Below, piece by piece: positions 1-4,273 of a stretch of 4,273 nucleotides of DNA (its first letter is position 1; each line of letters begins with the position of its first letter). Source of the DNA: Qubevirus faecium; the sequence record FJ539134.1, one strand, 5' to 3'. The notes beneath the pieces were generated by a model. That model searched no databases. It had not been told where the DNA came from and saw only the letters and a list, made by a program, of their open reading frames with translations. The position numbers were made by a program, and so were the translations under genes.

Positions 1-51
1 GGGGTAGGCCCCGTAAGGGGCCTGCCTTCACCGCACTACAGAGGAGAATCT
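1..51 (+). other. 5' UTR with terminal hairpin (stem 3-12 / 17-26, GUAA tetraloop 13-16); genome starts GGGG
   Basis: Direct pairing check: 12c-17g, 11c-18g, 10c-19g, 9c-20g, 8g-21c, 7g-22c, 6a-23t, 5u-24g (wobble), 4g-25c, 3g-26c. A 5'-terminal GGG(G) plus stable hairpin is typical of leviviruses. Confidence 0.7.
41..46 (+). promoter_or_regulatory. Shine-Dalgarno (GAGGAG) for the maturation protein gene
   Basis: GAGGAG lies 5 nt upstream of the ATG at 52-54. Confidence 0.7.
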
Positions 52-1404
52 ATGCCAACCCTTCCGAGAGGTCTTCGCTTCGGATCGAATGGCGAGGTCT
101 TAAATGACTTCGAGGCGCTCTGGTTTCCAGAGCGCCATACCGTCGATCTGAGCAATGGGACCTGCAAGCTCACTGGTTATATCACTAACCTGCCTGGCTA
201 CAGTAATATATTCCCGAATAAGGGAGTCACTGTTGCTCGTACGCCGTACAGAAGTACAGTGCCTGTTAACCATCTTGGTTACCGGCCCGTTACGACTGTT
301 GAGTACATTCCCGACGGCACCTACGTGCGCCTAGATGGGCACGTAAAGTTCGAAGGGGGCTTGGTTAATGGGTCAGTTGATCTCACGAATTACGTGATCT
401 CGTTAGCTGCTCAGGGTGGCTTCGATTACCAATCGGTAATCGGACCTAGGTTCTCTGCGCACTTCTCCGCGTTCAGCACCAAATATGGTGTCTTACTCGG
501 GGAAGGGAGAGAGACTCTTAAGTATCTTCTCCTGCTGCTTCGCAGAATGCGTGAAGGGTACCGCGCCGTAAGGCGTGGCGATCTCAAGCGCCTCAGGAAT
601 GTGATCTCTACGTTCGAGCCGACATCCTCTAAAGGGAGGAAGGCAAGATCTGAGTTCTCACAAACCTATCGCGACAAGCTTACCGGTAACAAGGTTGAAG
701 TTAAACCAAGTGAGGGTAAGTGGAATAGCAGTAGTGCGAGTGACCTGTGGTTAGAGTTCCGTTATGGGCTTATGCCGTTGTTCTACGACATTCAGTCCGT
801 GATGGAAGACTTCATGCGTGTCCATAAGAAGATCGCGAAAATACAGCGATTTTCTGCAGGGCACGGTAAGCTGGAGACGGTTAGTTCGCGGTTTTACCCG
901 GACGTCCACTTCGCTCTTGAGGTCACCGCAGTGTTACAGCGGCGTCATCGTTGGGGTGTCATATACCAGGATACTGGTTCTTATGCCACTTTTAACAATG
1001 GTCGTCTAGTCCCGGTGAAGGACTGGAAGACAGCGGCGTTTGCACTCCTTAATCCTGCCGAAGTTGCATGGGAGGTAACTCCTTACAGCTTCGTTGTGGA
1101 TTGGTTTGTAAATGTTGGGGATATGCTTGAGCAGATGGGCCAGCTTTATAGGCACGTCGATGTCGTTGACGGTTTCGACCGGAAGGACATAAAACTCAAG
1201 TCCGTATCCGTACGCGTCTTGACTGGCGACAGTGCGCACGTAGCTAAGTTTACTCTACGTCAAGCACGTTTGTTGCATAGTTATTATTCGCGCGTGCATA
1301 CCGTTGCGTTTCCGCAAATTTCACCACAACTCGATACTGAGATACGTAGCGTTAAGCACGTGATCGATAGTATCGCATTATTAACCCAGCGCGTTAAGCG
1401 CTGA
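52..1404 (+). CDS. A2: Maturation protein A2 (pilus attachment; in Qbeta-like phages also the lysis protein that inhibits MurA)
   Basis: 450-aa ORF, ATG start with upstream SD, TGA stop at 1402-1404. N-terminus MPTLPRGLRFG and many blocks (LWLEFRYGLMPLFYDI, TPYSFVVDWF, LLTQRVKR at the C-terminus) match my recollection of Qbeta A2. First gene in the genome, as expected. Confidence 0.93.
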   Translation: MPTLPRGLRFGSNGEVLNDFEALWFPERHTVDLSNGTCKLTGYITNLPGYSNIFPNKGVTVARTPYRSTVPVNHLGYRPVTTVEYIPDGTYVRLDGHVKFEGGLVNGSVDLTNYVISLAAQGGFDYQSVIGPRFSAHFSAFSTKYGVLLGEGRETLKYLLLLLRRMREGYRAVRRGDLKRLRNVISTFEPTSSKGRKARSEFSQTYRDKLTGNKVEVKPSEGKWNSSSASDLWLEFRYGLMPLFYDIQSVMEDFMRVHKKIAKIQRFSAGHGKLETVSSRFYPDVHFALEVTAVLQRRHRWGVIYQDTGSYATFNNGRLVPVKDWKTAAFALLNPAEVAWEVTPYSFVVDWFVNVGDMLEQMGQLYRHVDVVDGFDRKDIKLKSVSVRVLTGDSAHVAKFTLRQARLLHSYYSRVHTVAFPQISPQLDTEIRSVKHVIDSIALLTQRVKR

Positions 1405-1423
1405 ACTTTGGGTCAATTTGATC

Positions 1424-1822
1424 ATGGCAAAATTAAATCAGGTAACTCTTTCCAAAATCGGAAAGAATGGGGATCAGACTTTAACTCTTACACCGCGCGG
1501 GGTAAACCCGACGAACGGCGTGGCGTCGCTGTCTGAAGCTGGAGCTGTTCCGGCTTTGGAAAAGCGCGTGACTGTGTCAGTTGCGCAGCCTTCCCGTAAC
1601 CGTAAGAACTTTAAAGTTCAGATTAAACTCCAAAACCCGACTGCATGCACGAAGGACGCATGTGACCCATCTGTGACGCGATCTGCTTTCGCAGACGTAA
1701 CGCTGTCGTTCACGTCGTATTCTACCGACGAAGAACGTGCGCTAATTCGCACTGAGTTGGCAGCTCTGTTGCAGGACAATCTGATCATCGATGCAATCGA
1801 TAATCTGAATCCTGCTTACTGA
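1424..1822 (+). CDS. cp: Major coat protein
   Basis: ATG at 1424 gives MAKLNQVTL...NPAY, 132 codons plus UGA stop. Near-identical in blocks to Qbeta coat as I recall it (PRGVNPTNGVASLS, PALEKRVTVSV, QPSRNRKN, QNPTAC...CDPSVTR, STDEERA, RTELAALL, IDAI, LNPAY), including the two Cys residues. The track's 1418 start is a TTG two codons upstream; ATG 1424 is preferred. Confidence 0.95.
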   Translation: MAKLNQVTLSKIGKNGDQTLTLTPRGVNPTNGVASLSEAGAVPALEKRVTVSVAQPSRNRKNFKVQIKLQNPTACTKDACDPSVTRSAFADVTLSFTSYSTDEERALIRTELAALLQDNLIIDAIDNLNPAY

Positions 1823-2419
1823 GCAGCGTTACTGGTAGCCTCGTCCGGCGGTGGGGATAACCCCTCAATGCCAGACGTTCCGGATCTTCCAGACGTCAAA
1901 CCGCCTGACGGAACGGGGCGCTATACGTGCCCCTTCTCCTGTTACCGCCTCGGTAGTATCTACGAGGAGGGTAAGGACGGTTCTCCTGACATCTACGAAA
2001 GGGGAGACGAAGTCTCGGTTACTTTCGATTATGCTCTCGAGGATTTTCTTGGGAACACAAATTGGCGTAACTGGGATCAGCGATTGTCATCATATGACTT
2101 AGCTAATCGTCGTCGTTGCCGTGGCAACGGGTACATTGACTTAGATGCCACTGTGATGCAGTCAGACGAATTCGTTCTGTCTGGCCGTTATCCAGTGCGC
2201 AAGGTCAAGTTTCCCGGCGCTTTCGGCTCCATCAAGTATCTCTTGAACATTCAAGGCGATGCCTGGTTGGACTTATCCGAGGTGACAGCCTACCGTTCCT
2301 ACGGAATGGTTATTGGTTTCTGGACAGACTCTAAGAGCCCGCAGCTACCAACCGATTTCACGCAGTTTAACAGTGCTAATTGCCCTGTACAGACGGTGAT
2401 AATCATACCCTCACTTTAA
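1424..2419 (+). CDS. A1: A1 read-through protein (coat extended by UGA suppression; minor capsid protein)
   Basis: Coat frame continues past UGA to TAA at 2417-2419, 331 residues in all. The extension begins with a Gly-rich linker (SSGGGDNPS), then a Pro-rich segment and blocks matching Qbeta A1 from memory (GTGRYTCPF, LGNTNWR.WD.RLS, CRGNGYIDLDAT, PGAFG, VIGFW, FT.F....CP.Q.VI). Confidence 0.88.
1820..1822 (+). promoter_or_regulatory. Leaky UGA stop codon of the coat gene (programmed read-through site)
   Basis: UGA at 1820-1822 in context UAC-UGA-GCA. The same frame stays open through 1823-1867 (gca gcg tta ctg gta gcc tcg tcc ggc ggt ggg gat aac ccc tca) into the 1868-2419 ORF. Confidence 0.85.
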
Positions 2420-2428
2420 GCAACTTAA

Positions 2429-2433
2429 AGGAG
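2429..2433 (+). promoter_or_regulatory. Shine-Dalgarno (AGGAG) for the replicase gene
   Basis: AAAGGAGA at 2427-2434; AGGAG ends 5 nt before the ATG at 2439. Confidence 0.75.
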
Positions 2434-2434
2434 A

Positions 2435-2454
2435 TAGCATGTCAAAGACAGCTA
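2435..2454 (+). promoter_or_regulatory. Replicase translational operator hairpin (coat-protein binding site): stem UAGC/GCUA + UGUC/GACA, bulged A, AAA loop; contains the replicase AUG
   Basis: Seen directly: 2435-2438 uagc pairs with 2451-2454 gcua; 2439 a is unpaired (bulge, first base of the AUG); 2440-2443 uguc pairs with 2447-2450 gaca; loop 2444-2446 aaa. Same architecture as the Qbeta operator (8-bp stem, bulged A, 3-nt loop) as I recall it. Confidence 0.8.
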
Positions 2455-4169
2455 GTCGCAGAAGAGAAATTACTCAGCTATTGGGTAAGGTCGACATCAA
2501 CTTCGAAGACGACATCCACATGTCTATTGCCAACGACCTCTTTGAGGCCTACGGCATCCCGAAACTTCAGAATGCTGAGGAGTGCATTAACACCGCATTC
2601 CCAAGCCTTGATCAAGGCGCAGACACATTTCGTGTCGAGTATTTGCGCGCTGAGATCTTATCGAAGTTCGACGGGCACCCTCTAGGTACTGATACCGAAA
2701 AGACAGCATGGGAGAAATTCCTGGCTGCTGAAGAGGGTTGTAGACTTACGAACGAACGACTGTCGCAGGTTAAGTACCACGATAATTCCATTTTGTCGTG
2801 GGGCGAGCGTGTAATTCATACTGCTCGCCGAAAAATACTTAAACTAATTGGCGAGTCTGTGCCGTTCGGGGATGTGGCGTTGCGCTGCCGATTTTCTGGC
2901 GGTGCAACGACCTCGGTAAACCGTTTACACGGTCATCCGTCGTGGAAGCATGCCTGTCCGCAGGATGTTACCAAACGCGCATTCAAGTACCTGCAAGCCT
3001 TTAAACGGGCGTGCGGTGACGTTGTAGATTTACGCGTCAACGAGGTGCGCACTTCAAATAAAGCAGTCACTGTTCCGAAGAATAGTAAGACTGATCGCTG
3101 TATCGCCATCGAACCCGGTTGGAATATGTTTTTCCAGCTCGGTGTAGGTGCGGTGCTACGCGATAGGTTGCGTTTATGGAAGATTGACCTTAATGATCAG
3201 TCGACCAACCAACGCCTCGCGCGGGATGGGTCTCTGCTAAATCATTTAGCTACCATAGACTTATCCGCAGCCAGTGATTCGATCAGCTTAAAGCTAGTTG
3301 AATTGCTGCTCCCTCCTGAATGGTATGACCTTCTGACAGATCTCCGATCTGATGAAGGCGTTTTACCTGATGGACGAGTTGTGACCTATGAGAAAATATC
3401 CTCCATGGGAAATGGCTACACTTTCGAGCTTGAGTCGCTTATTTTCGCGGCGCTCGCAAGAAGTGTGTGTGAGTTACTAGAAATCGACCAATCTACTGTT
3501 AGCGTGTACGGGGATGATATAATCATCGACACTCGTGCCGCAGCTCCATTAATGGATGTCTTTGAATACGTTGGGTTCACGCCTAACAAAAAGAAGACGT
3601 TCTGCGATGGACCCTTCCGCGAATCGTGCGGTAAGCACTGGTTCCAAGGGGTAGATGTAACGCCCTTTTACATACGCCGACCAATTCGTTGCCTTGCTGA
3701 TATGATACTGGTTTTAAACAGTATCTACAGGTGGGGCACTGTTGATGGTGTATGGGATCCTAGAGCACTGACCGTGTACGAAAAGTATCTCAAGTTGCTG
3801 CCAAGAAATTGGCGACGCAACCGGATACCAGACGGCTACGGAGACGGAGCTCTCGTCGGATTGGCTACGACGAACCCGTTCGTTATAGTTAAGAATTATT
3901 CAAGACTATACCCGGTATTAGTTGAAGTCCAGAGGGACGTCAAGCGTAGCGAGGTAGGCAGTTATCTATATGCCTTACTCCGCGATCGCGAGACACGTTA
4001 TAGTCCTTTCCTGCGTGACGCAGATAGGACTGGGTTTGATGAAGCGCCGCTAGCTACTAGCCTTCGTCGCAAGACAGGTCGGTACAAAGTGGCGTGGATT
4101 CAGGACAGTGCCTTCATCCGGCCCCCGTATTTCATTACGGGCATTCCCGAGGTGAAGCTTGCAAGCTAG
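2439..4169 (+). CDS. rep: RNA-dependent RNA polymerase (replicase beta subunit)
   Basis: 576-aa ORF, ATG with SD, TAG stop at 4167-4169. YGDD catalytic motif at 3507-3518 (VSVYGDDIIID). Long blocks match Qbeta replicase from memory (CRFSGGATT, NKAVTVPKNSKTDRCIAIEPGWNMFFQLG, LATIDLSAASDSISL, VTYEKISSMGNGYTFELESLIFA, FRESCGKH, GVDVTPFYIR, IPDGYGDGALVG). Confidence 0.96.
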   Translation: MSKTASRRREITQLLGKVDINFEDDIHMSIANDLFEAYGIPKLQNAEECINTAFPSLDQGADTFRVEYLRAEILSKFDGHPLGTDTEKTAWEKFLAAEEGCRLTNERLSQVKYHDNSILSWGERVIHTARRKILKLIGESVPFGDVALRCRFSGGATTSVNRLHGHPSWKHACPQDVTKRAFKYLQAFKRACGDVVDLRVNEVRTSNKAVTVPKNSKTDRCIAIEPGWNMFFQLGVGAVLRDRLRLWKIDLNDQSTNQRLARDGSLLNHLATIDLSAASDSISLKLVELLLPPEWYDLLTDLRSDEGVLPDGRVVTYEKISSMGNGYTFELESLIFAALARSVCELLEIDQSTVSVYGDDIIIDTRAAAPLMDVFEYVGFTPNKKKTFCDGPFRESCGKHWFQGVDVTPFYIRRPIRCLADMILVLNSIYRWGTVDGVWDPRALTVYEKYLKLLPRNWRRNRIPDGYGDGALVGLATTNPFVIVKNYSRLYPVLVEVQRDVKRSEVGSYLYALLRDRETRYSPFLRDADRTGFDEAPLATSLRRKTGRYKVAWIQDSAFIRPPYFITGIPEVKLAS

Positions 4170-4180
4170 ACACTAGCTTG
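4162..4180 (+). other. 3' UTR hairpin (perfect 8-bp stem, 3-nt loop) whose 5' arm contains the replicase UAG stop
   Basis: caagcuag (4162-4169) pairs perfectly with cuagcuug (4173-4180); loop aca at 4170-4172. Confidence 0.6.
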
Positions 4181-4189
4181 TGATGGGAA

Positions 4190-4208
4190 GGGCGGTCTTT
4201 GACCGCCC
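4190..4208 (+). other. 3' UTR GC-rich hairpin (perfect 8-bp stem, UUU loop)
   Basis: gggcgguc (4190-4197) pairs perfectly with gaccgccc (4201-4208); loop uuu at 4198-4200. Confidence 0.6.
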
Positions 4209-4210
4209 GA

Positions 4211-4228
4211 GAGGAGAAAGAAAGAAAA
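4211..4228 (+). other. 18-nt all-purine A-rich tract in the 3' UTR (gaggagaaagaaagaaaa); candidate host-factor (Hfq) binding region
   Basis: The uninterrupted purine run is seen directly. Hfq preference for A-rich / ARN-repeat RNA and its role as Qbeta host factor are established; binding at this exact site is inferred. Confidence 0.4.
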
Positions 4229-4239
4229 CTCCCCTCAGT

Positions 4240-4273
4240 GAGGGTGGGCTCTGCTTTGCCCACTCTCCTCCCA
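4240..4273 (+). other. 3'-terminal hairpin (stem 4240-4249 / 4258-4267, 8-nt loop UCUGCUUU) followed by the terminal ...CUCCCA
   Basis: Pairs 4249c-4258g, 4248g-4259c, 4247g-4260c, 4246g-4261c, 4245u-4262a, 4244g-4263c, 4243g-4264u (wobble), 4242g-4265c, 4241a-4266u, 4240g-4267c. The terminal CCCA matches the canonical levivirus 3' end, where the last A is added by the replicase. The 3' region closely resembles the Qbeta 3' terminus as I recall it. Confidence 0.7.

Follow-up and report, generated by a model that had tools for sequence, protein, structure and literature searches.

A complete SP-like Qubevirus faecium genome, most probably that of coliphage strain BR1

The window analyzed here, a DNA stretch of 4273 nt, contains the following protein-coding features:

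52-1404, plus strand: A2 maturation protein; open reading frame of 450 aa (Pfam Phage_mat-A, E 7e-86)
1424-1822, plus strand: coat protein; open reading frame of 132 aa with a UGA stop (Pfam Levi_coat, E 1e-57)
1424-2419, plus strand: A1 read-through protein; 331 codons, ending at UAA (Pfam Read-through, PF16814, E 7e-50)
2439-4169, plus strand: replicase beta subunit (RNA-dependent RNA polymerase); 576 aa (Pfam RNA_replicase_B, E 2.5e-256)

The gene order revealed by reading frames and Pfam matches, A2, coat, A1 extension, and replicase within 4273 nt, is that of Qubevirus (the former Allolevivirus). A total of 193 nt is non-coding, namely the 5' UTR (1-51), two spacers of 19 nt each, and the 3' UTR (4170-4273). 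All known structures matched by the four proteins are those of Qbeta: 5vlz and 5mnt (A2; E 1e-118); the capsid structures 1qbe and 5kip (coat); 3rlc and 3rlk (A1 domain; E 1e-48); and the replicase structures 3mmp and 3agp (E 1e-203). The YGDD motif of the replicase is located at aa 357 (nt 3507-3518). A preliminary description of this DNA had proposed a complete Qbeta-like genome with a 5' hairpin, A2, coat, A1, replicase, and a 3' UTR with CCCA; the reading frames, Pfam assignments, and RNA folds agree with this proposal.

The best nucleotide matches belong exclusively to Qubevirus, and the closest are genomes of group IV, Qubevirus faecium: 95.1% (FI strain BR8, over 1-4273); 91.6-92.0% (SP); 83.5% (HB-P22); 80.7% (NL95 and HB-P24); and 79% (FI). 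Qbeta was matched by megablast in patches only, at approximately 72%. In a neighbour-joining tree, the window clustered with BR8 and four metagenome contigs within the group IV clade, while SP was the sister of this subclade and fell outside it. The SP/FI-like (group IV) lineage had been suggested beforehand, based in part on the genome length and on the sizes of A2 (450 aa) and replicase (576 aa), and these two sizes are indeed those of SP and BR8. Qubevirus faecium corresponds to the former Allolevivirus genogroup IV, a group originally defined by serology.

The genome of BR8 (FJ539135.1) has the same length, gene coordinates, UTRs, and spacers as the window, and no indels separate the two. 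They differ by 211 substitutions (171 transitions and 40 transversions), all of which are located in coding sequence; 154 are synonymous and 57 non-synonymous. The amino acid identities are 96.4% (A2), 97.0% (coat), 97.0% (A1), and 97.4% (replicase). The comparison with reference genomes that the preliminary description had called for identified BR8 as the nearest one; identity to BR8 reaches its minimum of 88-89% at 2501-2700. SP (X07489/NC_004301), the type strain of group IV, has gene products of the same sizes as those of the window and BR8 (450, 132, 331, and 576 aa), with identities of 95.3% (A2), 97% (coat), and 97.2% (replicase), and the S and M replicase-binding regions annotated in SP are conserved in the window. 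The SP genome comprises 4276 nt; the three additional nucleotides are in the region of the 5' hairpin (GGGGGG in the SP record, GGCCCC in the window).

HB-P22, HB-P24, NL95, and FI possess the four-gene plan, a 132-aa coat protein, and conserved termini as in the window. The first three also share with it the 576-aa replicase and the spacing pattern, but FI does not (FI read-through codon 332). All four are more distant from the window, with whole-genome identities of 75-81%, shorter A2 proteins of 438-442 aa, and 67-83% in the read-through domain. A mosaic read-through region was observed in HB-P22. Qbeta (Qubevirus durum, group III) has the architecture, operator hairpin, UGA read-through, and 3' CUCCUCCCA in common with the window, as well as the 3' hairpin loop UCUGCUUU and its AAAGCAG partner. 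The overall nucleotide identity is, however, about 56-61%, and the proteins share 46% (A2; 45.9%), 79% (coat), 58% (A1), and 56% (replicase) of their residues. In the Qbeta genome AB971354 (4217 nt), A2 occupies 61-1323 (420 aa) and the replicase gene 2352-4121 (589 aa); the length and the protein sizes agree with those given in the preliminary description. Membership in Qubevirus durum (genogroup III) is ruled out by the amino acid identities of 46-79% and the differing gene sizes.

The dN/dS values of all genes are 0.04-0.10, the A1 extension included (A2, 0.09); judged by these ratios, every gene is under strong purifying selection. The coat gene ends with a leaky-type UGA at 1820-1822 (context UAC UGA GCA). 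The A1 frame contains this one in-frame UGA and is then open until the UAA at 2417-2419, so that A1 consists of the coat protein and an extension of 198 codons (nt 1823-2416). The dN/dS of this extension against BR8 is 0.06 (range 0.03-0.10), which argues that it is translated and under selection. By homology, the UGA would be sufficiently leaky to yield A1 in this phage as well. Since the RNA fold of 1800-1870 around the UGA is no better than those of shuffled sequences (z -0.37), no read-through-stimulating structure is claimed.

The 5' end and the internal regions of the genome contain several elements with counterparts in SP and Qbeta:

1-51, plus strand: 5' UTR, starting with GGGG; Shine-Dalgarno-like AGAGGAG (40-46) before the A2 AUG
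2-27, plus strand: 5'-terminal hairpin of 11 bp, GGGUAGGCCCC GUAA GGGGCCUGCCU
1328-1440, plus strand: counterpart of the SP 'replicase binding region s' (S-site), extending from the end of A2 through the spacer into the start of the coat gene
2435-2454, plus strand: putative coat-protein operator hairpin, UAGC-A-UGUC AAA GACA-GCUA, covering the replicase AUG (2439-2441)
2626-2953, plus strand: counterpart of the SP 'replicase binding region m' (M-site), from X07489 2629-2956

The 5'-terminal hairpin has a folding energy of -26 kcal/mol (z -3.3). BR8 and HB-P22 have this same 5' UTR, and those of NL95 and HB-P24 differ from it only slightly. The operator hairpin comprises 8 bp, a single bulged A, and a 3-nt loop, with a GGAG Shine-Dalgarno motif just upstream (2430-2433); its fold (-6.7 kcal/mol, z -3.95) accounts for 85% of the ensemble. 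The hairpin is kept in all nine genomes, and its architecture is that of the aligned Qbeta sequence AUGCAUGUCUAAGACAGCAU, which suggests that the coat protein binds it as in Qbeta. The S-site coordinates were carried over from the X07489 features (1331-1443) with an offset of -3. The identity of this region is 100% to BR8, 94.7% to SP, and 75% to Qbeta, each above the genome average, and it may be expected to function as an S-site. The M-site counterpart shows identities of 90% (BR8) and 89% (SP). In Qbeta, the M-site has a known role in S1/replicase recruitment (PMC4176380); an analogous role may be expected here.

The 3' UTR is structured, and the predicted features of the 3' part of the genome are as follows:

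3060-3066, plus strand: AAAGCAG, the predicted internal pseudoknot partner, complementary to seven of the eight loop bases UCUGCUUU (4250-4257)
4159-4183, 4190-4208, and 4209-4236, plus strand: hairpins in the fold, the first one over the replicase UAG
4170-4273, plus strand: 3' UTR and 3'-terminal domain, structured, with the sequence end CUCCUCCCA (CCCA)
4184-4188 and 4269-4273, plus strand: closing helix in the fold, in which UGGGA pairs with UCCCA
4240-4267, plus strand: 3'-terminal hairpin in the fold, with the loop at 4250-4257

The minimum free energy of the last 119 nt is -62.1 kcal/mol (z -6.5). The consensus fold of seven genomes contains 41 pairs, 11 of which show compensatory double changes, and the 3' UTR has no differences from that of BR8. 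A long-range pseudoknot with the loop of the 3'-terminal hairpin was described in Qbeta (Klovins and van Duin, 1999, as cited in PMC4176380). In the window phage, such a pseudoknot is predicted between 3060-3066 and 4250-4257. AAAGCAG occurs once per genome, which is weak evidence alone because approximately 20% of shuffled sequences contain this 7-mer. The argument for the pseudoknot is based on the invariance of the motif at the homologous position across nine genomes, including Qbeta (nt 2973), in all of which the flanking AAUAAAGCAGU is invariant too. An Rfam scan of both strands with a permissive E-value gave no match; since Rfam appears to contain no model matching any Qbeta-type element, this result was not counted against the structures. 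Conservation at synonymous sites falls far short of that seen in the non-coding regions and in the known cis-elements of replication.

Based on homology to Qbeta, at amino acid identities of 46-79%, the following life cycle may be proposed. The plus strand would serve as mRNA. A2 would attach to the pilus and deliver the RNA, and the coat protein would form a T=3 capsid and repress replicase translation via the operator hairpin that covers the replicase AUG. The coat UGA would be read through occasionally, yielding A1, a minor capsid protein. The replicase beta subunit would recruit the host EF-Tu, EF-Ts, and S1, and copying of the RNA would start from the 3' CCA end, aided by the internal S- and M-sites, with the long-range pseudoknot placing the 3' domain at the region of the M-site. 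The host given in the records of the relatives is E. coli. Entry through the F pilus and lysis by A2 through inhibition of MurA belong to the Qubevirus plan and would extend to the window phage. To our knowledge, lysis by A2 has been demonstrated in Qbeta and not in group IV phages; by analogy, A2 is probably the lysis protein of the window phage too.

In MS2-type phages, the lysis gene L sits at a position equivalent to the A1 end and replicase start, which in the window is straddled by a 101-codon open reading frame in the +2 frame (2380-2685). An additional overlapping gene such as this one is the least probable of all alternatives considered in this study. The window, SP, BR8, and four metagenome contigs all have this frame open, which is expected by chance because these genomes differ by at most 9%, but it is interrupted by 1-12 stops in HB-P22, HB-P24, NL95, FI, and Qbeta, and its TTG start is replaced by CTG in BR8. 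The product would lack a hydrophobic segment (Kyte-Doolittle mean of the best 19-aa stretch, 0.63; GRAVY -0.25). Moreover, the genome is nowhere less conserved than in the overlapped region 2501-2700, the opposite of what is expected for double-coding sequence. Five alternative-frame reading frames on the plus strand were rejected as genes since their conservation stops at the SP clade, and none of those on the minus strand exceeds 77 aa. Among the alternative-frame reading frames examined, there was no separate overlapping lysis gene of the Emesvirus MS2 type.

Both termini of the genome are complete. They read GGGG (5') and CUCCUCCCA (3'), as in complete reference genomes. There is very little likelihood that the genome is chimeric or recombinant, or that its ends are incomplete or primer-imposed relative to the references. 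Primer-derived ends are conceivable in view of the fact that none of the 193 nt in UTRs and spacers differs from BR8 while coding dS is about 0.2. However, most of these nucleotides lie in internal spacers or beyond the reach of primers, and strains of the same series vary at their ends (the 5' loop in HB-P24 and 3' CCCUCUC in HB-P22), so the ends are not one imposed primer sequence. Metagenome contigs provide independent support for both ends: L011-L013 contain the 5' hairpin from base 3 on, and L010 matches the 3' end to base 4272. With regard to recombination, sites informative for the window, BR8, and SP were examined in 300-nt bins with HB-P22 and NL95 as outgroups, and no breakpoint was detected. 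The shared-derived sites numbered 52 for window and BR8 versus 16 and 17 for the other two pairings, the former being favoured in almost every bin. The bin 2401-2700 was mixed (two sites for window and BR8, three for window and SP, and four for BR8 and SP), but the bins include no block of switched affinity, and the window aligns with BR8 without gaps over 1-4273. Neither a best match outside the Qbeta-like phages nor truncated or chimeric termini were found, the two outcomes named in advance as contrary to the preliminary description.

The A2, coat, and replicase sequences match ACT66757.1, ACT66758.1, and ACT66760.1 (NCBI, Qubevirus faecium) at every residue. These accessions lie between ACT66753-56, from FJ539133 (HB-P24), and ACT66761-64, from FJ539135 (BR8), and the nucleotide accession, FJ539134, was deduced from this order. 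The strain name was assigned by elimination: the published group IV strains are SP, FI, BR1, BR8, HB-P22, HB-P24, and NL95 (PMC6963950, Table 1), and BR1 is the only one unaccounted for. We are therefore highly confident that the window is the full-length plus-strand genome of an F-specific ssRNA coliphage from the SP-like subclade of Qubevirus faecium, deposited as FJ539134, and by elimination that of strain BR1. This strain, 'Enterobacteria phage FI strain BR1', was isolated from creek water and belongs to the series of Friedman et al. (2009).

A new, unsequenced SP-like member diverging from BR8 by about 5%, either an isolate or a metagenome-assembled genome, would be compatible with the best nucleotide identity among the phage records searched (95.1%; a set that does not include FJ539134) and with the uncultured variants at about this distance known from metagenomes (L010-L013 and L009). 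It is nonetheless a most improbable explanation: three full-length proteins (450, 132, and 576 aa) exactly match the ACT proteins on a 4273-nt record and, with a dN of about 0.015 separating the window from its nearest relative, coincidence cannot credibly account for three exact matches at once. These matches also settle the question, left undecided in the preliminary description, of whether the DNA comes from a known isolate or a divergent relative: it is a known one. Slighter still is the chance of either an as yet unreported variant with identical versions of the three proteins or a lineage-specific alternative-frame gene (for instance, 2380-2685), both of which are without positive support. 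The genome assigned here to BR1 is ordinary and already known, with nothing novel; it is a public 2009-era environmental isolate, of use mainly in faecal source tracking. Reading of the raw sequence alone had correctly recognised a complete Qbeta-type genome and its subgroup, although the wider import of this is small. An exact-protein look-up among contigs retrieved none with the replicase and, with the coat protein, only a 1292-nt Logan contig with 96.5% identity to the window. Recent metagenomes repeatedly contain SP-like phages of the BR1/BR8-like subclade, at approximately 5% divergence.

The window holds a complete, non-chimeric and already known group IV genome (Qubevirus faecium, SP-like), which has been deposited. 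In an exact-sequence look-up, its A2 (maturation), coat and replicase proteins were identical residue for residue to NCBI ACT66757.1, ACT66758.1 and ACT66760.1, all labelled Qubevirus faecium and each located on one 4273-nt contig. The flanking accessions belong to FJ539133 (strain HB-P24; ACT66753-56) and FJ539135 (strain BR8; ACT66761-64); since ACT66757-60 lie between them, the parent record should be FJ539134. The group IV strains in a published table are SP, FI, BR1, BR8, HB-P22, HB-P24, and NL95, with BR1 originating from creek water (PMC6963950). All of these except BR1 were found among our matches, which leaves BR1 by elimination. Thus, the window is almost certainly FJ539134, strain BR1; the accession is strongly indicated, the strain name somewhat less firmly.

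Four long reading frames were present on the plus strand, and no minus-strand ORF in the window exceeded 77 aa.

Features of the window
1-51, non-coding: 5' UTR
2-27: 5' hairpin, 11 bp, -26 kcal/mol, z -3.3
52-1404, +: A2, 450 aa
1328-1440: counterpart of the SP-annotated S site, putative function as in Qbeta
1405-1423 and 2420-2438, non-coding: spacers, 19 nt each
1424-1822, +: coat protein, 132 aa counted from ATG, stop codon UGA
1424 through the single UGA to UAA at 2417-2419, +: A1 (coat read-through) frame, 331 codons
2380-2685, +: alternative frame of 101 codons, located where MS2 has its lysis gene (rejected as a gene)
2435-2454: putative operator hairpin, UAGC-A-UGUC/AAA/GACA-GCUA, with the replicase start codon inside
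2439-4169, +: replicase, 576 aa
2626-2953: counterpart of the SP-annotated M site, putative function as in Qbeta
4170-4273, non-coding: 3' UTR

The Qbeta-type gene plan proposed in the preliminary description was recovered together with the four expected Pfam families: Phage_mat-A for A2 (E 7e-86), Levi_coat for the coat protein (E 1e-57), the Read-through domain for the A1 extension (E 7e-50), and RNA_replicase_B for the replicase (E 2.5e-256), whose YGDD motif is at residue 357. The products match solved Qbeta structures of A2 (5vlz, 5mnt), the capsid (1qbe, 5kip), the A1 domain (3rlc), and the replicase beta subunit (3mmp, 3agp). AB971354 bears out the Qbeta figures cited there: 4217 nt, an A2 of 420 aa, and a replicase of 589 aa.

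Megablast of the window against 50,697 phage records matched Qubevirus genomes only, the best match included; FJ539134 is not among these records, which accounts for the lack of a 100% match. The closest are of group IV and Qbeta aligns in patches only, which bears out the suggested SP/FI-like placement.

Identity of relatives to the window (nucleotide, megablast; nucleotide, global alignment; amino acid for A2, coat, A1, replicase)
FJ539135.1, FI strain BR8 (also 4273 nt, identical CDS coordinates): 95.1% over 1-4273; 95.1%; 96.4, 97.0, 97.0, 97.4%
SP records: 91.6-92.0% over 17-4273; 91.6%; 95.3, 97.0, 95.2, 97.2%
HB-P22: 83.5%; 81%
HB-P24 and NL95: 80.7%; 79%
FI: 79%; 75%
Qbeta: about 72%, patches only; 56%; 46, 79, 58, 56%

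In a neighbour-joining tree, the window grouped with BR8 and four metagenome contigs that differ from it by 5.0-5.8% (ENA ERZ21852435; Logan SRR11402126, SRR11402137, and SRR11402160), with SP as sister. Near-full-length relatives, 3.5-5.8% from the window, occur in several recent sequencing runs (the above and Logan SRR26629359) and make up a BR1/BR8-like subclade separate from SP; the lineage is still in circulation.

Informative sites supported the pairing of the window with BR8 (241 versus 102 and 80 for the alternatives), as did shared-derived sites (52 versus 16 and 17), and no block of switched affinity was found along the window. In the read-through region (window 1801-2300), HB-P22 shared 82-84% identity with the window and only 66-72% with HB-P24 and NL95; at the replicase gene start (2401-2700) it was closer to HB-P24 (90%) than to the window (75%). 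These figures suggest that HB-P22 is a mosaic and that group IV lineages have recombined in the past, the window itself excepted.

Of the 211 substitutions that separate the window from BR8, 154 are synonymous and 57 change the amino acid; 171 are transitions, the other 40 transversions. Third codon positions predominate, and there are no indels. Nei-Gojobori dN/dS is 0.06-0.09 versus BR8 and 0.04-0.10 versus SP in every gene; because this includes the read-through extension, the latter is under selection and predicted to be expressed. The least conserved 200-nt windows versus BR8 are 2501-2700 (88-89%), 601-800 (91%), and 1701-1900 (91%); versus SP, those of 85-86% begin at 501, 601, 1101, 1201, 1701, 2001, 2501, and 2601. 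In both comparisons conservation is lowest near the start of the replicase gene (2501-2700), and this stretch extends into the M-site homologue.

All substitutions relative to BR8 are in coding sequence. None fell in the 193 non-coding nucleotides, against a dS of about 0.2 for each of the genes (probability 3.5e-5 at the coding substitution rate). Constraint is therefore much stronger on non-coding RNA than on synonymous sites, which fits strong selection at the RNA level. The terminal non-coding bases may in part be primer-defined. Since the terminal hairpins vary in other strains of the same study, the ends do not represent a single imposed primer sequence, and metagenome contigs independently recover the hairpin at the 5' end from base 3 onwards and the 3' end up to base 4272. 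The termini could be aligned over their entire length with the complete BR8, HB-P22, HB-P24, NL95, and Qbeta genomes. One contig (ENA ERZ21852435 NODE_1509, 4302 nt) begins with 48 nt duplicating window positions about 140-185 and carries extra Cs at its end, which looks like an assembly artefact at genome ends.

Five alternative-frame ORFs on the plus strand were rejected as genes: they are open only inside the closely related SP clade, with stops in HB-P24, NL95, and Qbeta, and in four of the five frames also in HB-P22 and in FI. The frame at 2380-2685 loses its start codon in BR8, encodes no hydrophobic segment, and overlaps the stretch where the genome is least conserved.

Several cis-elements were observed, to which we assign functions by analogy with Qbeta. 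The 5' arm of the hairpin at the 5' end contains GGCCCC in the window, BR8, HB-P22, HB-P24, NL95, and contigs SRR11402126, SRR11402137, and SRR11402160, but GGGGGG in SP records X07489 and GQ153935 (bases 1-30). The SP reading removes the inner 4 bp and may stem from an old G/C compression error that the SP records have kept. The hairpin at 2435-2454 consists of 8 bp with a single bulged A and a loop of 3 nt (z -3.95), accounts for 85% of the ensemble, and is colinear in the alignment with Qbeta AUGCAUGUCUAAGACAGCAU. In Qbeta, the hairpin over the replicase start is the coat-protein operator, which represses replicase translation; its counterpart here is a putative operator. No RNA structure was detectable around the leaky UGA (fold z -0.37), and an Rfam scan of the window returned no matching family.

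Folding of the 3'-terminal 119 nt gave -62 kcal/mol (z -6.5), and compensatory double changes occur at 11 of 41 pairs in a consensus fold of seven genomes. The terminal hairpin has an invariant 8-nt loop, UCUGCUUU (4250-4257). The complement of this loop, AAAGCAG (3060-3066), is found a single time in each genome and sits in an 11-nt stretch that does not vary across the nine genomes, Qbeta included; by analogy with Qbeta, the two would form a functional long-range pseudoknot. A second copy of the loop octamer, TCTGCTTT, lies within the coat gene (1682-1689) in the window, BR8, SP, and FI, is absent from HB-P22, HB-P24, NL95, and Qbeta, and is probably due to chance.
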